Shown piece after piece: positions 5,927-55,624 of a stretch of DNA of 64,000 nucleotides. The position numbers were made by a program, and so were the translations under genes. The notes beneath the pieces were generated by a model that was not told the origin of the DNA, made no database searches, and worked only from the letters and a program-made list of their open reading frames with translations. The stretch's first letter is position 1; each line of letters opens with the position of its first letter. Origin of the DNA: Escherichia coli (GTDB taxonomy: Bacteria; Pseudomonadota; Gammaproteobacteria; Enterobacterales; Enterobacteriaceae); NCBI RefSeq assembly GCF_048403405.1, contig NZ_CP183129.1, one strand, 5' to 3'.

Positions 5927-8173
5927 ATGCTCACTCGCCTGCGCGAAATAGTCGAAAAGGTAGCCAGCGCACCACGCCTGAATGAGGCGTTAAATATTCT
6001 GGTTACCGACATCTGTCTTGCGATGGATACCGAGGTCTGTTCGGTTTACCTTGCCGATCATGATCGACGTTGTTACTACCTGATGGCGACCCGGGGGCTG
6101 AAAAAACCACGCGGTCGCACTGTAACGCTCGCGTTTGATGAAGGGATCGTCGGCCTGGTTGGCAGGCTGGCGGAACCGATAAACCTTGCAGATGCGCAAA
6201 AGCACCCCAGCTTCAAATACATCCCCTCCGTAAAAGAAGAACGTTTCCGCGCGTTTTTAGGCGTACCAATTATTCAACGTCGCCAGTTGCTTGGTGTACT
6301 GGTGGTACAGCAACGAGAGTTGCGCCAGTATGACGAAAGTGAAGAATCCTTCCTGGTGACGCTTGCCACCCAGATGGCTGCGATTCTTTCTCAGTCGCAG
6401 TTGACTGCCTTGTTTGGGCAATATCGCCAGACGCGAATCCGTGCATTACCGGCAGCGCCTGGTGTAGCGATTGCCGAAGGCTGGCAGGATGCCACGTTAC
6501 CTTTAATGGAACAGGTGTATCAGGCATCAACGCTGGATCCAGCTCTGGAACGCGAACGACTGACCGGGGCGCTGGAAGAAGCGGCAAACGAGTTTCGCCG
6601 CTACAGCAAACGCTTTGCCGCCGGTGCACAAAAAGAAACGGCGGCTATTTTCGATCTTTACTCACACCTGCTTTCGGATACCCGGCTGCGGCGCGAATTG
6701 TTTGCCGAGGTTGATAAAGGCTCGGTGGCAGAGTGGGCGGTAAAAACGGTCATTGAAAAATTTGCCGAACAGTTTGCCGCGCTAAGCGATAACTATCTCA
6801 AAGAGCGGGCTGGCGATTTACGTGCGCTGGGTCAGCGATTGCTGTTTCATCTTGATGACGCTAATCAAGGGCCGAACGCCTGGCCGGAACGTTTCATTCT
6901 GGTGGCAGATGAACTGTCAGCGACAACGCTTGCAGAGCTGCCCCAGGATCGCTTAGTCGGTGTTGTCGTGCGAGATGGCGCAGCCAACTCCCATGCTGCG
7001 ATCATGGTACGTGCGCTGGGGATCCCTACCGTAATGGGCGCGGATATTCAGCCTTCGGTGCTGCATCGTCGGACGTTGATCGTCGATGGTTATCGCGGTG
7101 AATTGCTGGTCGATCCGGAGCCGGTACTGCTGCAAGAATATCAGCGGCTAATTAGTGAAGAGATTGAGCTTAGCCGTCTGGCGGAAGATGACGTCAATTT
7201 ACCCGCCCAGTTAAAAAGCGGCGAGCGCATTAAAGTCATGCTCAATGCCGGTTTAAGCCCGGAACATGAAGAAAAACTGGGCAGCCGTATTGATGGCATC
7301 GGTCTTTATCGCACTGAAATCCCATTCATGCTGCAAAGTGGTTTTCCGTCGGAAGAAGAACAGGTGGCGCAGTATCAGGGGATGCTGCAAATGTTCAATG
7401 ATAAACCCGTCACCTTGCGTACGCTGGATGTCGGAGCAGATAAGCAGCTGCCTTACATGCCGATCAGCGAAGAGAATCCATGCCTGGGTTGGCGTGGGAT
7501 TCGCATTACGCTCGATCAGCCGGAGATCTTCTTGATCCAGGTGCGGGCGATGCTGCGTGCTAATGCCGCTACGGGCAACCTGAATATTCTGTTGCCGATG
7601 GTCACCAGCCTCGATGAAGTTGACGAAGCACGCCGCCTGATTGAACGTGCAGGACGTGAAGTCGAGGAGATGATCGGTTACGAAATTCCCAAACCACGTA
7701 TCGGCATCATGCTGGAAGTGCCGTCAATGGTATTTATGCTGCCGCATCTGGCAAAGCGGGTCGATTTTATCTCTGTTGGCACCAACGATCTGACTCAATA
7801 CATCCTGGCCGTTGATCGCAATAATACCCGGGTGGCGAACATTTATGACAGTCTTCATCCTGCAATGTTACGAGCTCTGGCGATGATCGCCCGGGAAGCG
7901 GAAATACATGGAATCGATCTCCGTTTGTGCGGTGAAATGGCGGGCGATCCCATGTGCGTGGCAATCCTCATTGGGCTTGGGTATCGCCATCTGTCTATGA
8001 ACGGACGTTCTGTAGCGCGCGTAAAATACCTGCTGCGGCGCATTGATTTTGCCGAAGCAGAAAATCTTGCGCAGCGTAGTCTGGAAGCGCAACTGGCGAC
8101 CGAAGTTCGCCATCAGGTTGCAGCCTTTATGGAGCGTCGCGGCATGGGCGGGCTGATTCGCGGAGGGTTATAG
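5927..8173 (+). CDS. ptsP: phosphoenolpyruvate-protein phosphotransferase EI-Ntr (GAF domain + PEP-utilising enzyme)
   Basis: 748-aa ORF; N-terminal GAF-like region followed by Enzyme I domains; synteny with rppH. Confidence 0.9.
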   Translation: MLTRLREIVEKVASAPRLNEALNILVTDICLAMDTEVCSVYLADHDRRCYYLMATRGLKKPRGRTVTLAFDEGIVGLVGRLAEPINLADAQKHPSFKYIPSVKEERFRAFLGVPIIQRRQLLGVLVVQQRELRQYDESEESFLVTLATQMAAILSQSQLTALFGQYRQTRIRALPAAPGVAIAEGWQDATLPLMEQVYQASTLDPALERERLTGALEEAANEFRRYSKRFAAGAQKETAAIFDLYSHLLSDTRLRRELFAEVDKGSVAEWAVKTVIEKFAEQFAALSDNYLKERAGDLRALGQRLLFHLDDANQGPNAWPERFILVADELSATTLAELPQDRLVGVVVRDGAANSHAAIMVRALGIPTVMGADIQPSVLHRRTLIVDGYRGELLVDPEPVLLQEYQRLISEEIELSRLAEDDVNLPAQLKSGERIKVMLNAGLSPEHEEKLGSRIDGIGLYRTEIPFMLQSGFPSEEEQVAQYQGMLQMFNDKPVTLRTLDVGADKQLPYMPISEENPCLGWRGIRITLDQPEIFLIQVRAMLRANAATGNLNILLPMVTSLDEVDEARRLIERAGREVEEMIGYEIPKPRIGIMLEVPSMVFMLPHLAKRVDFISVGTNDLTQYILAVDRNNTRVANIYDSLHPAMLRALAMIAREAEIHGIDLRLCGEMAGDPMCVAILIGLGYRHLSMNGRSVARVKYLLRRIDFAEAENLAQRSLEAQLATEVRHQVAAFMERRGMGGLIRGGL

Positions 8174-8323
8174 CGCGGATCATATACATATCTTTTAACG
8201 GTATCCGGCAACCAGCCTGGTCCCCTTGTGCTATTATTCGCACCTTTGGAGCGCCTGAAACCTGCGGCGCGCATTTCAATCGCTGTTCTCTTTCAGCGAA
8301 ATAACAAGAACTTGTGGTGACAG

Positions 8324-9199
8324 ATGACCAGTAGCTATCTGCATTTTCCGGAGTTTGATCCGGTCATTTTCTCAATAGGACCCGTAGCGCTTCACTGGTA
8401 CGGCCTGATGTATCTGGTGGGTTTCATTTTTGCAATGTGGCTGGCAACACGTCGGGCGAATCGTCCGGGCAGCGGCTGGACCAAAAATGAAGTTGAAAAC
8501 TTACTCTATGCGGGCTTCCTCGGCGTCTTCCTCGGGGGACGTATTGGTTATGTTCTGTTCTACAATTTCCCGCAGTTTATGGCCGATCCGCTGTATCTGT
8601 TCCGTGTCTGGGACGGCGGCATGTCTTTCCACGGCGGCCTGATTGGCGTTATCGTGGTGATGATTATCTTTGCCCGCCGTACTAAACGTTCCTTCTTCCA
8701 GGTCTCTGATTTTATCGCCCCACTCATTCCGTTTGGTCTTGGTGCCGGGCGTCTGGGCAACTTTATTAACGGTGAATTGTGGGGCCGCGTTGACCCGAAC
8801 TTCCCGTTTGCCATGCTGTTCCCTGGCTCCCGTACAGAAGATATTTTGCTGCTGCAAACCAACCCGCAGTGGCAATCCATTTTCGACACTTACGGTGTGC
8901 TGCCGCGCCACCCATCACAGCTTTACGAGCTGCTGCTGGAAGGTGTGGTGCTGTTTATTATCCTCAACCTGTATATTCGTAAACCGCGCCCAATGGGAGC
9001 AGTCTCAGGCTTGTTCCTGATTGGTTACGGCGCGTTTCGCATCATTGTTGAGTTTTTCCGCCAGCCCGACGCGCAGTTTACCGGTGCCTGGGTGCAGTAC
9101 ATCAGCATGGGGCAAATTCTTTCCATCCCGATGATTGTCGCGGGTGTGATCATGATGGTCTGGGCATATCGTCGCAGCCCACAGCAACACGTTTCCTGA
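8324..9199 (+). CDS. lgt: prolipoprotein diacylglyceryl transferase
   Basis: 291-aa membrane ORF; immediately upstream of thyA (6-bp gap). Confidence 0.9.
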
Positions 9200-9205
9200 G
9201 GAACC

Positions 9206-10000
9206 ATGAAACAGTATTTAGAACTGATGCAAAAAGTGCTCGACGAAGGCACACAGAAAAACGACCGTACCGGAACCGGAACGCTTTCCATTTTTGGTCA
9301 TCAGATGCGTTTTAACCTGCAGGATGGATTCCCGCTGGTGACAACTAAACGTTGCCACCTGCGTTCCATCATCCATGAACTGCTGTGGTTTCTGCAGGGC
9401 GACACTAACATTGCTTATCTACACGAAAACAATGTCACCATCTGGGACGAATGGGCCGATGAAAACGGCGACCTCGGGCCAGTGTATGGTAAACAGTGGC
9501 GCGCCTGGCCAACGCCAGATGGTCGTCATATTGACCAGATCACTACGGTACTGAACCAGCTGAAAAACGACCCGGATTCGCGCCGCATTATTGTTTCAGC
9601 GTGGAACGTAGGCGAACTGGATAAAATGGCGCTGGCACCGTGCCATGCATTCTTCCAGTTCTATGTGGCAGACGGCAAACTCTCTTGCCAGCTTTATCAG
9701 CGCTCCTGTGACGTCTTCCTCGGCCTGCCGTTCAACATTGCCAGCTACGCGTTACTGGTGCATATGATGGCGCAGCAGTGCGATCTGGAAGTGGGTGATT
9801 TTGTCTGGACCGGTGGCGATACGCACCTGTACAGCAACCATATGGATCAAACTCATCTGCAATTAAGCCGCGAACCGCGTCCGCTGCCGAAGTTGATTAT
9901 CAAACGTAAACCCGAATCCATCTTCGACTACCGTTTCGAAGACTTTGAGATTGAAGGCTACGATCCGCATCCGGGCATTAAAGCGCCGGTGGCTATCTAA
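9206..10000 (+). CDS. thyA: thymidylate synthase
   Basis: 264-aa ORF with the active-site region ([13 protein letters not shown]) and conserved C-terminus. Confidence 0.95.
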
Positions 10001-10021
10001 TTACGAAACATCCTGCCAGAG

Positions 10022-10049
10022 CCGACGCCAGTGTGCGTCGGTTTTTTTT
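10022..10049 (+). terminator. intrinsic terminator after thyA (ccgacgc-loop-gcgtcgg followed by a T run)
   Basis: Hairpin plus T8 read directly from the sequence, about 20 nt after the thyA stop. Confidence 0.6.
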
Positions 10050-10184
10050 ACCCTCCGTTAAATTCTTCGAGACACCTTCCCGAAATTTTGCAACGTCCTG
10101 CAACGGCGTAAATAGTCCGGAAGATGCGCCGAAGAAATAGAAACTGGCCCTCGTCTTTTTTTCTCCTCGCTCCATACTGCCGGC

Positions 10185-10655
10185 ATGAAAACACAACGTG
10201 GTTATACGCTGATTGAAACGCTGGTCGCGATGCTGATTCTGGTCATGCTAAGCGCAAGTGGACTCTATGGCTGGCAATACTGGCAGCAGTCGCAACGGCT
10301 TTGGCAAACCGCCAGCCAGGCGCGGGACTATTTGCTCTATTTACGTGAAGATGCCAACTGGCATAACCGCGACCACAGTATCAGTCTTATCAGGGAGGGG
10401 ACGTTATGGTGCCTTGTGAGTTCCGCTGCTGGGGCCAATACCTGTCATGGCAGTTCACCATTGGTCTTTGTGCCACGCTGGCCCGAAGTCGAAATGAGCG
10501 ATCTGACACCTTCGCTTGCTTTCTTTGGCCTGCGCAATACCGCATGGGCCGGGCATATTCGCTTCAAAAACTCAACGGGCGAGTGGTGGCTGGTGGTTTC
10601 GCCGTGGGGAAGACTCCGGCTTTGTCAGCAAGGAGAAACAGAAGGATGCCTATAA
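10185..10655 (+). CDS. ppdA: prepilin-type N-terminal cleavage/methylation-domain protein (pseudopilin-like)
   Basis: 156-aa ORF with N-terminal [11 protein letters not shown] pilin-type signal. Confidence 0.8.
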
Positions 10656-11209
10656 AAGAGCAAGGTTTTTCTCTGCTGGAAGTGTTGATTGCTATGGCGA
10701 TCAGTAGCGTATTGTTGCTGGGGGCTGCACGCTTTCTGCCTGCGTTACAGCGTGACAGTTTAACGAGCACCCGTAAGCTGGCGCTGGAAGATGAAATCTG
10801 GCTGCGGGTATTTACCGTTGCGAAGCATCTCCAGAGGGCGGGTTATTGTCATGGCAGCTGTACCGGCGAAGGGCTGGAAATTGTCGGACAGGGTGACTGT
10901 GTCATTGTGCAGTGGGATGCGAACAGTAACGGTATCTGGGATCGCGAACCGGTAAAAGAGTCCGACCAGATTGGATTTCGTCTGAAGGAGCATGTGCTGG
11001 AAACGCTACGCGGTGCGACATCCTGTGAAGGTAAGGGCTGGGATAAAGTCACTAATCCGGATGCCATCATTATCGACACTTTTCAGGTTACCCGACAGGA
11101 GGTCAGCGGTTTCTCGCCGGTGTTGACGGTTAATATGCACGCTGCCAGCAAGGCTGATCCGCAAACCGTGGTGGATGCCAGCTATAGCGTGACAGGATCC
11201 AACCTGTGA
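10646..11209 (+). CDS. ppdB: prepilin-type pseudopilin-like protein
   Basis: ATG at 10646 gives [17 protein letters not shown] (pilin-type N-terminus). The longer ORF-track call from 10406 is an upstream extension overlapping ppdA. Confidence 0.75.
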
Positions 11210-11613
11210 ACCGCGAAAAGGGTGTTTCGTCACTGGCTCTGGTCCTTATGCTGCTGGTTTTGGGTAGCTTGCTATTACAAGGAATGAGCCAACAGGATCG
11301 CAGTTTTGCCTCTCGCGTGAGCATGGAAAGTCAGTCATTGCGCCGCCAGGCCATCGTTCAGTCGGCGCTGGAGTGGGGAAAAATGCACTCCTGGCAGACG
11401 CAGCCCGCAGTTCAGTGCTTACTGTATGCTGCCACCGGTGCCCGGGGTTGTCTGCGTTTATTGGCAGATAATGAGGCCGTATTGATTGCCGGTTATGAAG
11501 GCGTTTCGTTGTGGCGAACAGGCGAAGTCATCGATGGAAACATTGTTTTTTCGCCACGCGGCTGGAGCGATTTTTGTCCGCTGAAAGAGAGGGCGTTATG
11601 TCAGCTTCCCTGA
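11206..11613 (+). CDS. ygdB: small protein of the ppd operon, hydrophobic N-terminus
   Basis: 135-aa ORF whose start overlaps the ppdB stop; synteny. Confidence 0.7.
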
Positions 11614-11921
11614 AGAATCAACAAGGCTTTAGCCTGCCGGAGGTAATGTTGGCGATGGTGTTGATGGTGATGATTGTCACTGCGTTATCGGGTTTCCAGC
11701 GAACATTAATGAACAGTCTTGCCAGCAGAAACCAGTACCAACAGCTCTGGCGGCATGGCTGGCAGCAAACGCAACTGCGCGCGATTTCGCCACCTGCCAA
11801 CTGGCAGGTCAACCGAATGCAGACATCGCAGGCGGGATGTGTCAGCATCAGCGTTACGCTAGTTTCACCCGGGGGCAGAGAAGGCGAGATGACCCGCCTG
11901 CATTGCCCGAATCGTCAGTAG
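11598..11921 (+). CDS. ppdC: prepilin-type pseudopilin-like protein
   Basis: ATG at 11598 gives [20 protein letters not shown] (pilin-type N-terminus); the ORF-track start at 11511 is an extension. Confidence 0.75.
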
Positions 11922-11933
11922 TCAGGAGCCGCT

Positions 11934-14900
11934 ATGTTAAGGGTCTACCATTCCAATCGTCTGGACGTGCTGGAAGCGTTGATGGAGTTTATCGTCGAAC
12001 GCGAACGGCTGGACGATCCTTTCGAACCAGAGATGATTCTGGTGCAAAGTACCGGTATGGCGCAGTGGCTGCAAATGACCCTGTCGCAAAAGTTTGGTAT
12101 TGCGGCAAACATTGATTTTCCGCTGCCAGCGAGCTTTATCTGGGATATGTTCGTCCGGGTGTTACCGGAAATCCCCAAAGAGAGCGCCTTTAACAAACAG
12201 AGCATGAGCTGGAAACTGATGACTCTGCTGCCGCAACTGTTGGAGCGCGAAGACTTTACCCTGTTGCGGCATTATCTGACTGACGATAGCGACAAGCGAA
12301 AACTGTTCCAGCTTTCTTCAAAAGCGGCGGACCTGTTTGACCAGTATCTGGTCTATCGTCCGGACTGGCTGGCACAGTGGGAAACAGGACATTTGGTTGA
12401 AGGGCTGGGAGAAGCACAGGCCTGGCAAGCGCCGTTGTGGAAGGCGTTGGTGGAATATACCGACGAACTCGGGCAACCGCGCTGGCACCGCGCCAATCTT
12501 TATCAGCGCTTTATCGAAACGCTGGAGTCCGCGACGACCTGCCCGCCGGGGTTACCTTCGCGCGTATTTATATGCGGTATTTCCGCGTTACCGCCTGTTT
12601 ATCTCCAGGCGCTACAGGCGCTGGGTAAACATATTGAAATCCATCTCCTGTTTACCAACCCCTGCCGTTATTACTGGGGCGACATTAAAGATCCTGCTTA
12701 TCTGGCGAAACTGCTGACTCGCCAGCGCCGACACAGTTTTGAAGATCGCGAATTACCGCTATTTCGCGACAGCGAAAATGCCGGACAGCTCTTTAACAGC
12801 GATGGTGAACAGGATGTCGGCAACCCGCTGCTGGCCTCATGGGGCAAGCTTGGGCGCGACTACATTTATCTCCTTTCTGATCTGGAGGGCAGCCAGGAGC
12901 TGGACGCCTTTGTCGATGTCACGCCAGATAACCTGCTGCATAACATTCAGTCTGACATTCTGGAACTTGAAAACTGCGCTGTTGCGGGTGTGAATATCGA
13001 AGAGTTTTCCCGTAGCGATAACAAACGCCTGCTTGATCCACTGGATAACAGTATCACCTTCCACGTTTGCCATAGCCCGCAGCGCGAAGTTGAAGTTTTA
13101 CACGATCGCCTGCTGGCTATGCTGGAGGAAGACCCGACATTGACTCCGCGCGACATCATCGTGATGGTGGCTGATATCGACAGCTACAGTCCGTTTATTC
13201 AGGCAGTGTTTGGTAGCGCACCTGCGGATCGTTACCTACCTTACGCCATTTCCGACCGTCGGGCGCGGCAGTCACATCCGGTACTGGAAGCGTTTATCAG
13301 CCTGTTATCACTGCCTGACAGTCGCTTTGTGTCAGAGGATGTGCTGGCGTTGCTGGATGTGCCGGTGCTGGCGGCGCGGTTTGACATCACCGAAGAAGGG
13401 CTGCGTTATTTACGCCAGTGGGTCAACGAATCCGGCATTCGTTGGGGGATAGATGACGACAACGTTCGCGAGCTGGAACTCCCCGCCACCGGACAACACA
13501 CCTGGCGATTTGGCCTGACGCGCATGTTGCTGGGCTACGCGATGGAGAGCGCGCAGGGCGAGTGGCAATCGGTTCTACCTTATGATGAATCGAGCGGCTT
13601 AATTGCAGAACTGGTGGGGCATCTGGCTTCACTGCTAATGCAGCTAAACATCTGGCGTCGCGGGCTGGCGCAGGAGCGTCCGCTGGAAGAGTGGTTGCCG
13701 GTTTGTCGCGATATGCTCAACGCCTTCTTCCTGCCGGATGCGGAAACCGAAGCGGCGATGACGCTGATCGAACAACAATGGCAGGCGATTATCGCCGAAG
13801 GTTTAGGTGCGCAGTATGGCGACGCGGTGCCGCTGTCACTATTGCGTGATGAACTGGCACAGCGCCTGGATCAGGAACGTATCAGCCAGCGTTTTCTCGC
13901 CGGACCGGTTAACATTTGTACTCTGATGCCAATGCGTTCCATCCCATTCAAAGTGGTTTGCCTGCTGGGAATGAACGACGGCGTTTATCCACGCCAGCTT
14001 GCGCCATTGGGCTTTGACCTGATGAGCCAGAAACCGAAGCGTGGCGACCGTAGCCGTCGCGATGACGACCGCTATCTGTTCCTGGAAGCGTTAATTTCCG
14101 CGCAGCAAAAACTCTATATCAGCTATATCGGGCGTTCTATTCAGGATAACAGTGAACGTTTCCCGTCGGTACTGGTGCAGGAACTGATCGACTACATCGG
14201 GCAAAGCCATTATCTACCGGGCGATGAAGCGCTCAACTGTGATGAAAGCGAGGCAAGGGTAAAAGCGCATCTTACTTGCCTCCATACCCGGATGCCGTTT
14301 GATCCGCAAAACTACCAGCCAGGCGAACGACAAAGCTATGCTCGTGAATGGCTACCTGCGGCCAGCCAGGCTGGTAAAGCACATTCTGAATTTGTTCAGC
14401 CGCTGCCGTTTACCTTACCGGAAACCGTGCCGCTGGAAACGCTACAACGATTCTGGGCGCATCCGGTGCGGGCGTTTTTCCAGATGCGCTTGCAGGTGAA
14501 CTTCCGTACCGAAGACAGCGAAATCCCCGACACCGAGCCATTTATTCTGGAAGGGCTTAGTCGTTATCAAATCAATCAGCAGTTATTGAATGCACTGGTT
14601 GAGCAGGATGATGCCGAACGCTTGTTCCGCCGCTTCCGGGCGGCAGGGGATTTACCGTATGGCGCTTTTGGTGAAATTTTCTGGGAAACACAGTGCCAGG
14701 AGATGCAGCAGCTTGCCGACAGAGTCATTGCCTGTCGCCAGCCGGGGCAAAGTATGGAAATTGATCTCGCCTGCAACGGTGTGCAGATAACTGGCTGGTT
14801 GCCGCAGGTGCAGCCGGATGGCCTGTTGCGCTGGCGTCCCTCTTTATTAAGTGTGGCGCAGGGAATGCAACTTTGGCTGGAACAACTTGTCTACTGTGCC

Positions 14901-15302
14901 AGCGGTGGTAATGGTGAAAGTCGCCTTTTTCTACGCAAAGACGGCGAGTGGCGTTTTCCGCCGCTTGCAGCCGAACAGGCTTTGCATTACCTCTCACAAC
15001 TGATTGAGGGGTATCGTGAAGGAATGTCCGCGCCATTGCTGGTGTTACCTGAAAGTGGCGGCGCGTGGCTAAAAACCTGTTATGACGCGCAAAACGATGC
15101 CATGCTGGATGACGATTCCACGTTACAAAAAGCCCGTACGAAATTCCTTCAGGCTTACGAAGGCAACATGATGGTGCGTGGCGAAGGTGATGATATCTGG
15201 TATCAACGGCTCTGGCGGCAATTAACACCAGAGACAATGGAGGCCATCGTTGAACAGTCGCAACGTTTCCTGTTACCGCTGTTTCGCTTTAATCAGTCAT
15301 GA
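11934..15302 (+). CDS. recC: exodeoxyribonuclease V gamma subunit
   Basis: 1122-aa ORF; expected length and position. Confidence 0.95.
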   Translation: MLRVYHSNRLDVLEALMEFIVERERLDDPFEPEMILVQSTGMAQWLQMTLSQKFGIAANIDFPLPASFIWDMFVRVLPEIPKESAFNKQSMSWKLMTLLPQLLEREDFTLLRHYLTDDSDKRKLFQLSSKAADLFDQYLVYRPDWLAQWETGHLVEGLGEAQAWQAPLWKALVEYTDELGQPRWHRANLYQRFIETLESATTCPPGLPSRVFICGISALPPVYLQALQALGKHIEIHLLFTNPCRYYWGDIKDPAYLAKLLTRQRRHSFEDRELPLFRDSENAGQLFNSDGEQDVGNPLLASWGKLGRDYIYLLSDLEGSQELDAFVDVTPDNLLHNIQSDILELENCAVAGVNIEEFSRSDNKRLLDPLDNSITFHVCHSPQREVEVLHDRLLAMLEEDPTLTPRDIIVMVADIDSYSPFIQAVFGSAPADRYLPYAISDRRARQSHPVLEAFISLLSLPDSRFVSEDVLALLDVPVLAARFDITEEGLRYLRQWVNESGIRWGIDDDNVRELELPATGQHTWRFGLTRMLLGYAMESAQGEWQSVLPYDESSGLIAELVGHLASLLMQLNIWRRGLAQERPLEEWLPVCRDMLNAFFLPDAETEAAMTLIEQQWQAIIAEGLGAQYGDAVPLSLLRDELAQRLDQERISQRFLAGPVNICTLMPMRSIPFKVVCLLGMNDGVYPRQLAPLGFDLMSQKPKRGDRSRRDDDRYLFLEALISAQQKLYISYIGRSIQDNSERFPSVLVQELIDYIGQSHYLPGDEALNCDESEARVKAHLTCLHTRMPFDPQNYQPGERQSYAREWLPAASQAGKAHSEFVQPLPFTLPETVPLETLQRFWAHPVRAFFQMRLQVNFRTEDSEIPDTEPFILEGLSRYQINQQLLNALVEQDDAERLFRRFRAAGDLPYGAFGEIFWETQCQEMQQLADRVIACRQPGQSMEIDLACNGVQITGWLPQVQPDGLLRWRPSLLSVAQGMQLWLEQLVYCASGGNGESRLFLRKDGEWRFPPLAAEQALHYLSQLIEGYREGMSAPLLVLPESGGAWLKTCYDAQNDAMLDDDSTLQKARTKFLQAYEGNMMVRGEGDDIWYQRLWRQLTPETMEAIVEQSQRFLLPLFRFNQS

Positions 15303-15477: not shown

Positions 15478-18366
15478 ATGCCCAGCAGCACCTGGTTCAA
15501 AGCATTATTGTTGTTTGTTGCCCTTTGGGCACCCTTAAGTCAGGCAGAAACGGGATGGCAGCCGATTCAGGAAACCATCCGTAAAAGTGATAAAGATAAC
15601 CGCCAGTATCAGGCTATACGTCTGGATAACGGTATGGTGGTCTTGCTGGTTTCTGATCCGCAGGCGGTTAAATCGCTCTCGGCGCTGGTAGTGCCCGTTG
15701 GGTCGCTGGAAGATCCCGAGGCGTACCAGGGGCTGGCACATTACCTTGAACATATGAGTCTGATGGGGTCGAAAAAGTACCCGCAGGCTGACAGTCTGGC
15801 CGAATATCTCAAAATGCACGGCGGCAGTCACAATGCCAGCACGGCACCGTATCGCACGGCTTTCTATCTGGAAGTTGAGAACGACGCCTTGCCCGGTGCG
15901 GTGGACCGCCTGGCGGACGCTATTGCAGAACCCTTGCTCGACAAGAAATACGCCGAACGTGAACGTAATGCAGTGAATGCCGAATTAACCATGGCGCGTA
16001 CGCGTGACGGGATGCGCATGGCACAGGTCAGCGCAGAAACCATTAACCCGGCACACCCCGGTTCAAAGTTTTCTGGTGGTAACCTCGAAACTTTAAGCGA
16101 CAAACCCGGAAATCCGGTACAGCAGGCGCTGAAAGATTTCCACGAGAAGTACTATTCCGCCAATCTGATGAAGGCGGTTATTTACAGCAATAAACCGCTG
16201 CCGGAGTTGGCAAAAATGGCGGCGGACACCTTTGGTCGCGTGCCGAACAAAGAGAGCAAAAAACCGGAAATCACCGTGCCGGTAGTCACCGACGCGCAAA
16301 AGGGCATTATCATTCATTACGTCCCGGCGCTGCCGCGTAAAGTTCTGCGCGTTGAGTTTCGCATCGATAACAATTCAGCGAAGTTCCGTAGTAAAACGGA
16401 TGAATTGATTACCTATCTGATCGGTAATCGCAGCCCAGGTACACTTTCTGACTGGCTGCAAAAGCAGGGATTAGTTGAGGGCATTAGCGCCAATTCCGAT
16501 CCTATCGTCAACGGCAACAGCGGCGTATTAGCGATCTCTGCGTCTTTAACCGATAAAGGTCTGGCGAATCGCGATCAGGTTGTGGCGGCCATTTTTAGCT
16601 ACCTCAATCTGTTACGCGAAAAAGGGATTGATAAACAATACTTCGATGAACTGGCGAATGTGCTGGATATCGACTTTCGTTATCCGTCAATCACCCGTGA
16701 TATGGATTACGTCGAATGGCTGGCAGATACCATGATTCGCGTTCCTGTTGAGCATACGCTGGATGCAGTCAATATTGCCGATCGGTACGACGCTAAAGCA
16801 GTAAAAGAACGCCTGGCGATGATGACGCCGCAGAATGCGCGTATCTGGTATATCAGCCCGAAAGAGCCGCACAACAAAACGGCTTACTTTGTCGATGCGC
16901 CGTATCAGGTCGATAAAATCAGCGCACAAACTTTCGCCGACTGGCAGAAAAAATCCGCCGACATTGCGCTCTCTTTGCCAGAGCTTAACCCTTATATTCC
17001 TGACGATTTCTCGCTGATTAAGTCAGAGAAGAAATATGACCATCCAGAGCTGATTGTTGATGAGTCGAATCTGCGTGTGGTGTATGCGCCAAGCCGTTAT
17101 TTTTCCAGCGAACCCAAAGCTGATGTCAGCCTGATTTTGCGTAATCCGAAAGCCATGGACAGCGCCCGCAATCAGGTGATGTTTGCGCTCAATGATTATC
17201 TCGCAGGGCTGGCGCTTGATCAGTTAAGCAACCAGGCGTCGGTTGGTGGCATAAGTTTTTCCACCAACGCTAACAACGGCCTTATGGTTAATGCCAATGG
17301 TTACACCCAGCGCCTGCCGCAGCTGTTCCAGGCATTGCTCGAGGGGTACTTTAGCTATACCGCTACGGAAGATCAGCTTGAGCAGGCGAAGTCCTGGTAT
17401 AACCAGATGATGGATTCCGCAGAAAAGGGCAAAGCGTTCGAGCAGGCGATTATGCCCGCGCAGATGCTCTCGCAAGTGCCGTACTTCTCGCGAGATGAAC
17501 GGCGCAAAATTTTGCCTTCAATCACTTTGAAAGAGGTGCTGGCCTATCGCGACGCCTTAAAATCAGGGGCTCGACCAGAGTTTATGGTTATTGGCAACAT
17601 GACCGAAGCCCAGGCAACAACGCTGGCACGCGATGTGCAAAAACAGTTGGGCGCTGATGGTTCGGAGTGGTGTCGTAACAAAGATGTCGTGGTCGATAAA
17701 AAACAATCTGTCATCTTTGAAAAAGCCGGTAACAGCACCGACTCCGCACTGGCAGCGGTATTTGTACCGACTGGCTACGATGAATACACCAGCTCAGCCT
17801 ATAGCTCTCTGTTGGGGCAGATCGTACAGCCGTGGTTCTACAATCAGTTGCGTACCGAAGAACAGTTGGGCTATGCCGTGTTTGCGTTTCCAATGAGCGT
17901 GGGGCGTCAGTGGGGCATGGGCTTCCTGTTGCAAAGCAATGATAAACAGCCTTCATTCTTGTGGGAGCGTTACAAGGCGTTTTTCCCAACCGCAGAGGCA
18001 AAATTGCGGACGATGAAGCCAGAAGAGTTTGCGCAAATCCAGCAGGCGGTAATAACCCAGATGCTGCAGGCACCGCAAACGCTCGGCGAAGAAGCATCGA
18101 AGTTAAGTAAAGATTTCGATCGCGGCAATATGCGCTTCGATTCGCGTGATAAAATCGTGGCCCAGATAAAACTGCTGACGCCGCAAAAACTTGCTGATTT
18201 CTTCCATCAGGCGGTGGTCGAGCCGCAAGGCATGGCTATTCTGTCGCAGATTTCCGGCAGCCAGAACGGGAAAGCCGAATATGTGCATCCTGAAGGCTGG
18301 AAAGTGTGGGAGAACGTCAGCGCGTTGCAGCAAACAATGCCCTTGATGAGTGAAAAGAATGAGTGA
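15478..18366 (+). CDS. ptrA: protease III (pitrilysin), M16 zinc metalloprotease, periplasmic
   Basis: 962-aa ORF with signal peptide and inverted zinc motif HYLEHM; lies between recC and recB. Confidence 0.95.
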   Translation: MPSSTWFKALLLFVALWAPLSQAETGWQPIQETIRKSDKDNRQYQAIRLDNGMVVLLVSDPQAVKSLSALVVPVGSLEDPEAYQGLAHYLEHMSLMGSKKYPQADSLAEYLKMHGGSHNASTAPYRTAFYLEVENDALPGAVDRLADAIAEPLLDKKYAERERNAVNAELTMARTRDGMRMAQVSAETINPAHPGSKFSGGNLETLSDKPGNPVQQALKDFHEKYYSANLMKAVIYSNKPLPELAKMAADTFGRVPNKESKKPEITVPVVTDAQKGIIIHYVPALPRKVLRVEFRIDNNSAKFRSKTDELITYLIGNRSPGTLSDWLQKQGLVEGISANSDPIVNGNSGVLAISASLTDKGLANRDQVVAAIFSYLNLLREKGIDKQYFDELANVLDIDFRYPSITRDMDYVEWLADTMIRVPVEHTLDAVNIADRYDAKAVKERLAMMTPQNARIWYISPKEPHNKTAYFVDAPYQVDKISAQTFADWQKKSADIALSLPELNPYIPDDFSLIKSEKKYDHPELIVDESNLRVVYAPSRYFSSEPKADVSLILRNPKAMDSARNQVMFALNDYLAGLALDQLSNQASVGGISFSTNANNGLMVNANGYTQRLPQLFQALLEGYFSYTATEDQLEQAKSWYNQMMDSAEKGKAFEQAIMPAQMLSQVPYFSRDERRKILPSITLKEVLAYRDALKSGARPEFMVIGNMTEAQATTLARDVQKQLGADGSEWCRNKDVVVDKKQSVIFEKAGNSTDSALAAVFVPTGYDEYTSSAYSSLLGQIVQPWFYNQLRTEEQLGYAVFAFPMSVGRQWGMGFLLQSNDKQPSFLWERYKAFFPTAEAKLRTMKPEEFAQIQQAVITQMLQAPQTLGEEASKLSKDFDRGNMRFDSRDKIVAQIKLLTPQKLADFFHQAVVEPQGMAILSQISGSQNGKAEYVHPEGWKVWENVSALQQTMPLMSEKNE

Positions 18367-32168: not shown

Positions 32169-32245
<77 letters not shown>

Positions 32246-32279
32246 TCACCGTACTGCTTTTACTTCATCAAATTTTGAT

Positions 32280-32356
<77 letters not shown>

Positions 32357-32389
32357 TCACCGTACTGCTTTACTTCATCAAATTTTAAT

Positions 32390-32466
<77 letters not shown>

Positions 32467-36788: not shown

Positions 36789-36994
36789 AAAAAAAAGCAC
36801 CGCAATTAGGCGGTGCTACATTAATCACTATGGACAGACAGGGTAAATGTACAGGAAGTGAAAAAAGGTAGCTTTGCTACCATGGTCTGAATCGCAGACC
36901 AATTGCAAACACAACAACACAACATCACAACCGTAAGCCAAAAGTTCACCAGAACACGCATTCCGATAAAACTTTTCGTTCCGGCTCAGGAAGT
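36789..36994 (-). ncRNA. gcvB: GcvB small regulatory RNA (GT-rich target-binding region, intrinsic terminator)
   Basis: Reverse complement reads ACTTCCTGAGCCGGAACG...GTTGTGATGTTGTGTTGTTGTGTTTGCAATTGG...GCACCGCCTAATTGCGGTGCTTTTTTTT, which matches gcvB as I remember it; divergent from gcvA. Confidence 0.85.
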
Positions 36995-55213: not shown

Positions 55214-55580
55214 GTCGACAGGGAGTCAGACAACGAAGTGAACATCAGGATGATGACACTTCTGAAGGACACACCAGGATGGTGTTTCAGGGAAAGGCTT
55301 CTGGATGAAGCGAAGAGGATGACGCAGGACGCGTTAAAGGACACCTCCAGGATGGAGAATGAGAACCGGTCAGGATGATTCGGTGGGTCAGGAAGGCCAG
55401 GGACACTTCAGGATGAAGTATCACATCGGGGTGGTGTGAGCAGGAAGCAATAGTTCAGGATGAACGATTGGCCGCAAGGCCAGAGGAAAAGTTGTCAAGG
55501 ATGAGCAGGGAGCAACAAAAGTAGCTGGAATGCTGCGAAACGAACCGGGAGCACTGTGAATACAGTGCTCCCTTTTTTTA
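55214..55580 (+). ncRNA. csrB: CsrB regulatory RNA (CsrA-sequestering; many GGA motifs; strong intrinsic terminator)
   Basis: Starts GTCGACAGGGAGTCAGACAACG...; roughly 18 CAGGA(U/A)G-type GGA motifs counted by eye; ends with hairpin gggagcactgtgaatacagtgctccc plus T8. Confidence 0.9.
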
Positions 55581-55624
55581 TTCCTGCTATCCTTCGCGGC
55601 AGTTTTTCTTATTGAGGTTGCTTT

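Follow-up and report, generated by a model that had tools for sequence, protein, structure and literature searches.

Minor pilin genes ppdA-ppdB-ygdB-ppdC upstream of recC in Escherichia coli and a probable recC promoter within ppdC

Genes and features of the locus

We analyzed a window of 64,000 nucleotides of Escherichia coli DNA in which four short genes, ppdA, ppdB, ygdB and ppdC, lie between thyA on one side and recC on the other (Table 1). The DNA of this cassette is E. coli chromosome, with 100% identity to annotated E. coli chromosomes, and the gene coordinates are concordant between the ORF listing, our reading of the sequence and the RefSeq annotation of identical DNA. Adjacent genes overlap by 10 nt (ppdA/ppdB), 4 nt (ppdB/ygdB, GTGA) and 16 nt (ygdB/ppdC), and a 12-nt gap separates the ppdC stop codon from the recC start. 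An initial annotation, made from the sequence without database searches, had given the extent of the cassette (10185-11921) and the gap exactly, had noted that the genes overlap, and had correctly described a tight link to recC on the same strand. Its gene names match the RefSeq annotation, and all four proteins score above the cut-offs of their own NCBIfam equivalog models.

In 5425 of 5426 complete E. coli genomes, a 2.4 kb stretch covering the cassette has an identity of 95% or more and bears the same gene names, so chance does not account for the arrangement. We also rejected hypervariability of the cassette within E. coli, because the cassette and the first half of recC have the same median identity, ~97.5%. 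Annotated strains share one ThyA protein accession. The same four-gene order occurs in six related loci that span the cassette (L004, L005 and L009-L012), and in L007 the fourth gene is uncalled but present as an ORF. In all eight loci that extend far enough to show it, recC follows the cassette on the same strand; of seven distant YgdB homologues, three are on contigs too short for their neighbors to be read. We found no Rfam RNA family within the cassette.

Table 1. Positions of genes and of predicted or candidate control elements in the window
Feature	Position	Strand	Description
thyA intrinsic terminator	10018-10049	+	11-pair hairpin followed by T8; upstream limit of the control region of the cassette
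Distal CRP-like site (candidate)	10063-10084	+	TTCTTCGAGACACCTTCCCGAA; center ~-111.5 from the ppdA ATG; binding predicted from sequence
Direct repeat	10089-10104	+	TGCAAC-N4-TGCAAC; among the most conserved spacer columns in 37 species
Proximal CRP-S site (candidate)	10115-10136	+	GTCCGGAAGATGCGCCGAAGAA; center -59.5 from the ATG; weak match in E. coli
-10-like hexamer	10173-10178	+	CATACT; ends 7 nt 5' of the ppdA start codon; predicted start ~10185
ppdA	10185-10655	+	minor pilin, 156 aa, ATG start, GspH/FimU-like
ppdB	10646-11209	+	minor pilin, 187 aa, ATG start, GspJ/PilW-like
ygdB	11206-11613	+	minor pilin, 135 aa, GTG start, GspK/PilX-position subunit, Pfam DUF2509
ppdC	11598-11921	+	minor pilin, 107 aa, ATG start, GspI/PilV-sized
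recC promoter (candidate)	11820-11848	+	-35 CAGACA (11820-11825), 17-nt spacer, extended -10 TGT-CAGCAT (11840-11848)
recC Shine-Dalgarno	11924-11928	+	AGGAG in the 12-nt gap; invariant in the ppdC-recC alignment
recC	11934-15302	+	1122 aa, gamma subunit of RecBCD; ptrA, recB and recD come next

Prepilin signals, families and predicted folds

PpdA, PpdB and PpdC each begin with a class III signal peptide, in which a glycine is followed by the mature sequence (Y/F)(T/S)L.E, with glutamate at +5, and a hydrophobic helix. The leader is MKTQRG in PpdA (mature N-terminus YTLIE) and MPIKEQG in PpdB (FSLLE), and PpdC continues with FSLPE after its leader. In a profile search all three exceed the cut-offs of Pfam N_methyl and TIGR02532, which confirms the prepilin-peptidase-type N-termini that had been assigned to three products.

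The fourth product, YgdB, has the same N-terminal layout without Glu5, a feature missed by the initial annotation. Its leader is MNREKG and its mature N-terminus VSSLA. Homologues came from a representative search, which gave a diverse set (a word-indexed search gave only Escherichia and Citrobacter). The cleavage glycine, Gly6, is invariant in an alignment of 52 family members, and glutamate at +5 was never found among the members displayed from that alignment. That YgdB, a DUF2509 protein, keeps the cleavage glycine and never has Glu5, like GspK and PilX, is new here. By a published rule, the one member of four that lacks Glu5 and keeps the cleavage glycine takes the GspK/PilX position (PMC7541494).

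PpdA matches Pfam N_methyl (3.2e-07), NCBIfam PRK10506 (1.7e-74) and, weakly, GspH (0.0016). The matches of PpdB are N_methyl (2.5e-08), PRK10557 (2e-98) and GspJ (1.7e-4). YgdB carries the Pfam domain DUF2509 and PpdC carries T2SSppdC, and each of these two proteins matches GspI and GspK about equally. The H, I, J or K position proposed for each protein is provisional and draws on weak N-terminal profile matches together with size. Of the four proteins, only PpdB found anything of use in a PDB sequence search, a weak match to the Thermus thermophilus pilin TTHA1219 (E = 0.061), a protein described as pseudopilin-like (PMC5131608). Some database entries join YgdB and PpdC as one protein, which may reflect frameshifts.

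The confident predicted model of YgdB shows a pilin fold, with a long N-terminal helix on an antiparallel beta-sheet. The PpdC model has a pLDDT of 83.3, and its top five structural matches are all pseudopilins or pilins. GspI and GspK pseudopilins are among the best structural matches of both models; a Foldseek search returned no significant match. As modeled, YgdB is a true pilin-fold subunit without Glu5. The initial annotation had called the set minor pilins or pseudopilins and had suggested structure prediction, for comparison with type II secretion pseudopilins and type IV pilins, as a check. The pilin folds of the YgdB and PpdC models, the signal anatomy and the profile matches bear this out.

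Control region of the cassette and transcription of recC

Folding of the thyA terminator gives -16.6 kcal/mol (z = -4.1), and none of 200 shuffles folds as well. A simple consensus scan for promoters and terminators over 9800-12400 missed this terminator; folding, a relaxed scan and phylogenetic footprints were used instead. In the relaxed scan the best sigma-70-like match of the spacer is TTGCAA, 17 nt, AATAGT, and the TGCAAC repeat could be either a regulator site or the -35 element (TTGCAA) of another promoter.

From the spacer sequence we infer two CRP-like sites with centers near -111 and -60 from the ppdA ATG, a distance of about 52 bp. We took the CRP-S core as TGCGA-N6-TCGCA, with C6 in place of T6. 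Of 37 Enterobacteriaceae loci, 19 have their highest-scoring CRP-S-like 22-mer at the distal site (-110.5 to -112.5). The TTCC of this site is at least 95% conserved, and the Klebsiella site reads TTTTGCGAGCCGGTTTCCCGCA. At the position equivalent to the proximal site (-59.5 to -61.5), relatives have clear CRP-S palindromes: GTTTGCGTACCTGCACGCAATG in L011, GTTTGCGTGCCTGAACGCAGGC in L019, CTTCGCATAACGCCTCGTAAAA in L010 and TGTTCTAATCCTCCTCGCAGAA in L004. A direct CRP-S consensus search of the E. coli spacer found at best 5-6 of the 10 core bases, and the case for the E. coli sites is made because relatives carry better ones at equivalent positions. Another candidate, TTTTGCAACGTCCTGCAACGGC, was rejected as a CRP-S site, since its repeated halves are direct and not inverted.

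The -10-like hexamer lies exactly 7 nt 5' of the ppdA ATG in 36 of 37 loci and is shifted by 1 nt in the remaining one. At -12 to -7 it reads CATACT in 19 loci, CACACT in 11, GATACT in 4, and CAGACT and CATATT in one each. The start codon is ATG in 37/37 loci, and a Shine-Dalgarno-like tetramer precedes ppdA in 0/37. The fixed position of the hexamer and the missing Shine-Dalgarno sequence, likewise new here, suggest that the ppdA mRNA is leaderless, starting at its AUG.

Within ppdC we identified a block that is conserved even at synonymous sites and may be read as a recC promoter, an observation that is also new here. Its elements in ppdC are CAGACA and TGTCAGCAT. The predicted start is at ~11855, 79 nt before the recC ATG. 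Of the third codon positions, 7 of 12 are invariant in the block and 13 of 95 in the rest of ppdC (Fisher p = 0.0013; five genera, selected irrespective of the block). The exact block is present in 62 species genomes, and recC begins 86 nt downstream of it in 51 of the 60 genomes where recC is visible.

It could instead be that all recC expression comes from one ppdA-ppdB-ygdB-ppdC-recC transcript, in which recC is the fifth gene and the cassette promoter serves as the recC promoter. A published operon listing gives ppdAB-ygdB-ppdC-recC as one unit and reports similar mRNA half-lives across all of its cistrons (PMC3936743). ppdC and recC also have the single strand and short gap (12 nt) of a single operon, no terminator was found inside the cassette or ahead of recC, and no consensus-grade sigma-70 promoter was found in 9800-12400. 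A single operon would further have recC without a promoter of its own, and sequence evidence speaks against this, the promoter-like block with its synonymous-site conservation and its fixed distance to recC. More distant lineages also have wider ppdC-recC gaps, of 75 and 204 nt. The recC mRNA start was reportedly mapped by Finch et al. in 1986 to ~80 bp upstream of the ATG. RecC is constantly present, at ~5 molecules per cell in ordinary culture (PMC6536506), whereas ppdD, a gene of the same regulon, is detectable only when Sxy is over-expressed (bioRxiv 284836). We therefore consider sole dependence on the cassette transcript unlikely. Because of the conserved promoter-like block and the constant low-level presence of RecC, recC probably has its own promoter in ppdC and so would not depend on that of the cassette. 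The initial annotation's claim of a transcript shared with recC stands in part: the operon listing and the lack of a terminator agree with it, but an additional recC promoter is indicated. In our model, recC would be transcribed from a weak constitutive promoter within ppdC and, upon cassette induction, also by read-through.

A leaderless ppdA, two CRP-like sites five helical turns apart and a recC promoter buried in ppdC may together form an undescribed wiring, a proposal that we make tentatively and that as a whole is rather doubtful. If it is true, recC receives a constitutive trickle plus a read-through burst when Sxy activates the pilus genes, and DNA uptake is coupled to a changed RecC supply and possibly to the subunit balance of RecBCD.

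Role of the minor pilins and comparison with known systems

The function of the genes had been called unclear, a view that is outdated: papers assign the four proteins to the PpdD type IVa pilus, as the core minor pilins from which its assembly is primed (PMC5131608, PMC7248040, bioRxiv 856302). PpdAB-YgdB-PpdC prime PulG assembly in a pulHIJK mutant, thus replacing PulHIJK (PMC5131608), deletion of core minor pilin genes in EHEC causes strong pilus assembly defects (PMC7248040), and the four genes belong to the set used for rebuilding the pilus (bioRxiv 856302). Processing by prepilin peptidase and a need for the proteins in the initiation of filament assembly are reported in work that PMC5131608 and PMC7248040 cite. 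The E. coli pilus gene set also includes ppdD, hofB, hofC, hofM-Q and gspO (bioRxiv 856302), none of which is within the 64-kb window.

Two further papers describe the operon as part of the CRP-S/Sxy regulon and the equivalent of comNOPQ, which H. influenzae requires for transformation (PMC1635313, PMC12616744). One of them states that the operon is under Sxy regulation and names ppdA as the most strongly induced gene (PMC12616744, citing Sinha 2009; Jaskolska and Gerdes 2015). The link to recC, also called unclear, is an adjacency noted in 2006 and again in 2025, and it is present in both Enterobacteriaceae and Pasteurellaceae (PMC1635313, PMC12616744). The function of the cassette, its membership of the competence regulon and its recC neighborhood are thus already published, and the locus itself adds nothing new to them. 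Natural transformation of E. coli reaches only ~1e-7 to 1e-8 (PMC12616744), so the physiological role in E. coli is thinly documented. We are highly confident that PpdA, PpdB, YgdB and PpdC are the four core minor pilins of a chromosomal type IVa pilus under Sxy/CRP-S control.

Two other readings of the set were weighed. The genes could be type II secretion minor pseudopilins, paralogues of GspH-I-J-K that serve protein secretion and not a pilus or DNA uptake. The weak profile matches of PpdA, PpdB and YgdB to GspH, GspJ and GspK, the GspI and GspK pseudopilins among the best matches of both models, the Pfam name of the PpdC family ("Type II secretion prepilin peptidase dependent protein C") and the substitution for PulHIJK (PMC5131608) all point this way. 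However, the neighbors are thyA and recC, with no other secretion-system gene nearby, the gene order by best resemblance is H-J-K-I, unlike gspH-I-J-K, and four papers place the set in the PpdD type IVa pilus and the Sxy regulon (PMC12616744, PMC1635313, PMC7248040, bioRxiv 856302). A role in secretion is thus very improbable. We give equally little credence to the cassette being a decaying relic, kept just for the recC promoter or transcript, with proteins that are inactive in E. coli. Constraint on the four genes is weaker than on recC (dN/dS of 0.15-0.34 versus 0.034), YgdB alleles differ by up to ~15% within E. coli, the YgdB-PpdC fusion entries may come from frameshifts, and the promoter-like block is the most conserved DNA in ppdC. 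Natural transformation is also very rare, and the cassette stays silent in the absence of Sxy (PMC12616744). Against decay, dN/dS is well under 1, each of the four divergent strains examined keeps the four reading frames intact, the four genes are annotated by RefSeq in 22/22 genomes listed, and >15 genera retain the cleavage glycine, the hydrophobic helix and cysteine pairs. The proteins are also reported to function in reconstituted pilus assembly (PMC5131608, PMC7248040, bioRxiv 856302).

For the preferred reading, core minor pilins of the type IVa pilus, we propose the following mechanism. In ordinary culture the cassette would be silent, and Sxy (TfoX) with cAMP-CRP would switch it on within the competence (CRP-S) regulon. 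The N-terminal hydrophobic helix would insert each minor pilin into the inner membrane, and the short basic leader would be cleaved after the conserved glycine. A staggered tip complex of the four would then prime polymerization of PpdD, as GspH-I-J-K prime the type II secretion pseudopilus. YgdB is likely the topmost subunit, because it lacks Glu5 like GspK and PilX. The pilus would further use PpdD as its major pilin, the Hof proteins for assembly and GspO/PppA as prepilin peptidase. Gene structure, signal anatomy, the YgdB and PpdC folds, purifying selection and recC linkage across Enterobacterales were seen in our analysis; the priming function, Sxy dependence and the role in transformation come from papers.

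What is gained is the identification of a known function, a probable recC promoter, support for a pilin fold in YgdB and two regulatory details, a candidate promoter in ppdC and a ppdA mRNA that may be leaderless. Confirmation of these details would account for the way in which a single stretch of DNA serves both a constitutive repair gene and a tightly silenced pilus operon. It would also be a reason for caution when ppdC is deleted or recoded synonymously in engineered strains, since RecC could drop.

The closest system is ComN-ComO-ComP-ComQ of H. influenzae (HI0938-HI0941), likewise four small co-oriented genes directly upstream of recC, under Sxy/CRP-S control and with a prepilin-peptidase signal in the first gene product. 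The two sets are treated as orthologues (PMC1635313, PMC12616744), although their similarity is below BLAST detection (PMC1635313). ComO, ComP and ComQ are annotated with signal peptidase I signals (PMC12616744), whereas E. coli PpdB and PpdC have clear prepilin signals. [quoted passage not shown]

The FimU/PilV/PilW/PilX set is also a four-gene operon for class III signal-peptide proteins, one of which lacks Glu5 (PilX there, YgdB here). The cassette differs in its smaller proteins (PilX has ~195 aa and YgdB 135 aa), in its order by resemblance (H-J-K-I, not U-V-W-X), in being unaccompanied by a pilY1-type adhesin gene or pilE, and in having recC as its genomic partner. Both sets prime pilus assembly (PMC7248040, PMC7541494).

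Unlike GspH-GspI-GspJ-GspK, the cassette lies outside any gsp operon and follows Sxy/CRP-S regulation, not that of secretion genes, and YgdB is without the inserted domain of GspK. GspK, like YgdB, lacks Glu5, and the YgdB and PpdC models find their best structural matches among pseudopilins of this set. The proteins of both sets have the pilin fold, assemble into a tip complex and prime the growth of a filament, and the two sets are interchangeable in priming (PMC5131608).

The cassette and its published roles

The ppdA-ppdB-ygdB-ppdC cassette is a known, annotated and experimentally studied operon, and the initial annotation named its genes correctly. Four same-strand reading frames are flanked by thyA and recC in the raw sequence. 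Neighboring cassette genes overlap by 10, 4 and 16 nt in gene order, and the 12 nt gap between ppdC and recC contains AGGAG ahead of recC. The ORFs, a megablast search and the RefSeq annotation (exactly these four genes, then recC, ptrA, recB and recD) match, so the coordinates and gene order are confirmed to the base. By megablast, the cassette stretch is present at ≥95% identity in 5425 of 5426 complete E. coli genomes, and is identical in 6. The ptrA gene, which encodes the periplasmic protease pitrilysin and separates recC from recB in the window, was probably inserted horizontally into an ancestral order of recC, recB and recD (PMC12342828). Rfam matches elsewhere in the window have no relation to the cassette: CsrB, GcvB and three tandem tRNA genes of identical score (55223-55582 on the plus strand; 36789-36994 and 32172-32466 on the minus strand).

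Features of the thyA-recC region and its surroundings (window positions)
Feature	Position	Strand	Remarks
thyA	9206-10000
antisense ORF	9993-10196	-	short; covers the putative ppdA control region; 669-842 in compared locus L013
thyA terminator	10018-10049	+	strong; 11-pair hairpin, then T8
TGCAAC-N4-TGCAAC	10089-10104	+	direct repeat, one helical turn apart
ppdA	10185-10655	+	ORF list, raw sequence
ppdB	10646-11209	+	ORF list, raw sequence
ygdB	11206-11613	+	ORF list, raw sequence; GTG start codon
ppdC	11598-11921	+	ORF list, raw sequence
invariant block, first part	11818-11825
invariant block, second part	11838-11850
recC	11934-15302
ptrA	15478-18366

The earlier view that the function of these genes and their link to recC are unclear is out of date, because papers from 2006 onward describe both. 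In these papers, which give the primary experiments second-hand, four "prepilin peptidase dependent" genes adjoin recC in Pasteurellaceae and Enterobacteriaceae (noted in 2006), and the E. coli genes are treated as orthologues of H. influenzae pulG-HI0941, in the competence regulon of Sxy-dependent CRP (CRP-S) sites (PMC1635313). The literature also describes an E. coli operon under Sxy control in which induction is strongest for ppdA (PMC12616744), PulG assembly in a pulHIJK mutant that can be primed by PpdAB-YgdB-PpdC (PMC5131608), strong pilus assembly defects on deletion of the core minor pilin genes in EHEC (PMC7248040), and a rebuilt E. coli pilus system with the four genes as its minor-pilin module (bioRxiv 856302). 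What we add is confined to supporting structure predictions and two regulatory proposals drawn from sequence.

Expression of ppdA and recC

The thyA terminator and ppdA are separated by 135 nt, which we footprinted in 5 genomes and then in 37 Enterobacteriaceae species. A candidate distal CRP-like site is centered near -111.5 (counted from the ppdA ATG), and 19 of the 37 loci have their top CRP-S-like 22-mer between -110.5 and -112.5. A second candidate, centered at -59.5 to -61.5, is weak in E. coli (GTCCGGAAGATGCGCCGAAGAA) and a good palindrome in relatives. The TGCAAC repeat, among the most conserved spacer sequences in the 37 species, is probably not a CRP site because it is direct, not inverted. 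The -35 position holds a conserved CTCG. A -10-like hexamer occupies -12 to -7 (CATACT in 19 loci, CACACT in 11, GATACT in 4, CAGACT and CATATT in 1 each); it ends exactly 7 nt ahead of the ATG in 36 of 37 loci and is displaced by 1 nt in the other. The start codon is ATG in 37/37 loci, none of which has a Shine-Dalgarno-like tetramer ahead of ppdA; ppdB, ygdB, ppdC and recC have a Shine-Dalgarno sequence, leaving ppdA (region 10173-10187) the only one of the five genes without.

Alternatively, the ppdA transcript could start near 10123 from TTGCAA/AATAGT. On the simplest reading, CRP would activate the promoter from a proximal site at class I distance and transcription would begin with the A of the ATG, and these features suggest a leaderless ppdA mRNA; our literature search found no paper linking ppdA with "leaderless". 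The antisense ORF over this spacer, partly annotated in K-12 BW2952 as a 57 amino acid hypothetical protein (WP_001303639.1) and unannotated in strain 4621, is probably a spurious call.

We found no terminator-like hairpin with a T-tract within 10185-11934, so transcripts from the ppdA promoter should run on into recC; a consensus terminator scan overlooked the clear thyA terminator, and its negatives warrant caution. Listing of the operon as ppdAB-ygdB-ppdC-recC (PMC3936743) fits read-through. In addition, recC has been credited with a promoter of its own, distinct from that of recB (PMC6536506; PMC12342828), and cells in ordinary culture contain ~5 RecC molecules each (PMC6536506).

An alignment of five genera, picked without reference to this feature, contains an invariant block at the ppdC-recC junction: TGCAGACA, 12 nt, and TGTGTCAGCATCA. 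Third codon positions are invariant at 7/12 sites in 11815-11850 vs 13/95 in the remainder of ppdC (Fisher p = 0.0013). Read as a putative promoter, the block has CAGACA as its -35, TGT-CAGCAT as an extended -10 and a spacer of 17 nt, and predicts a start near 11855, 79 nt ahead of the recC ATG. Finch et al. reportedly mapped a recC start ~80 bp upstream in 1986. Exact copies of the pattern are present in 62 species-representative genomes from at least 15 Enterobacteriaceae genera, at loci with PpdC 46-99% identical to that of E. coli; recC lies downstream in 60 of the 62, and 86 nt past the -10 in 51 of those. On this sequence evidence, recC is most likely served by a weak constitutive promoter within ppdC together with inducible read-through.

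Linkage to recC and selection

Among contigs encoding YgdB homologues (65% down to ~27% identity), same-strand recC is downstream of the cassette in 8/8 loci long enough to show it. Seven of these loci have gaps of 12, 12, 12, 31, 18, 75 and 204 nt; the eighth, an odd metagenome scaffold, has one of ~3.8 kb. Upstream of the cassette, one lineage carries a gene other than thyA. The conserved partner is thus recC.

In a distant YgdB-bearing genome (L004, GCA_018494105.1; 3184-4706), bacteriorhodopsin-family and carotenoid dioxygenase-like genes lie upstream of the cassette in place of lgt-thyA; downstream come recC and then directly recB, with no ptrA in between. The odd scaffold (L007, region 6332-10529) has an uncalled ppdC-like ORF with G/FSLLE at 6332-6718 (the slash marks the prepilin cleavage point). 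The ~3.8 kb from there to recC, free of Ns and of ORFs ≥90 amino acids, could be degraded DNA in a gene-losing genome.

The window strain, K-12, O157:H7 and a bovine isolate (4/4) all have intact copies of the four genes. For ppdA, ppdB, ygdB and ppdC, pairwise dN/dS is 0.15, 0.34, 0.21 and 0.27, compared with 0.034 for recC. Median identity of the cassette across E. coli is ~97.5%, on par with the first half of recC, and nucleotide diversity is somewhat above that of lgt-thyA. The cassette is under purifying but relaxed selection, not decay.

Minor-pilin products and their predicted structures

All four products score above the cut-offs of their own NCBIfam equivalog models. PpdA (MKTQRG/YTLIE), PpdB (MPIKEQG/FSLLE) and PpdC (mature N-terminus FSLPE) also match both Pfam N_methyl and TIGR02532 above their curated thresholds; further Pfam matches are T2SSppdC for PpdC and DUF2509 for YgdB. 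The initial count of three prepilin-type products holds for these three, but overlooked YgdB (MNREKG/VSSLA), which has the same layout without the glutamate at mature position +5 (Glu5). Four database proteins (P0004, P0020, P0031 and P0044) join YgdB and PpdC in one 228-237 amino acid product with DUF2509, N_methyl and T2SSppdC domains, presumably through a frameshift or assembly error within the 16-nt overlap.

Sequence searches detected no solved structure for any of the four proteins. The AlphaFold2 model of YgdB, built from a 52-sequence alignment, is confident (pLDDT 93.8) and predicts a helix spanning residues 7-60 and, after it, a sheet of five strands; Foldseek returned no significant match to it. 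For the PpdC model (pLDDT 83.3), the top five structural matches are GspK, XcpV, EpsI, GspI and TTHA1218. Profile matches of PpdA to GspH, PpdB to GspJ and the YgdB N-terminus to GspK are weak. Structure prediction, proposed earlier as a check, establishes a predicted pilin fold from the YgdB and PpdC models and the profile scores, but the scores do not firmly place each protein at a tip-complex position.

The YgdB family is small: searching 1.84 billion representative proteins yielded 111 clusters. Across 52 full-length aligned members, the leader glycine and cysteines C82, C124 and C132 are invariant, C71 is nearly so, and no displayed member has Glu at +5. Published work (PMC7541494) gives the loss of Glu5 as the distinguishing trait of GspK and PilX, which are believed to cap the tip complex, and YgdB likewise lacks this residue.
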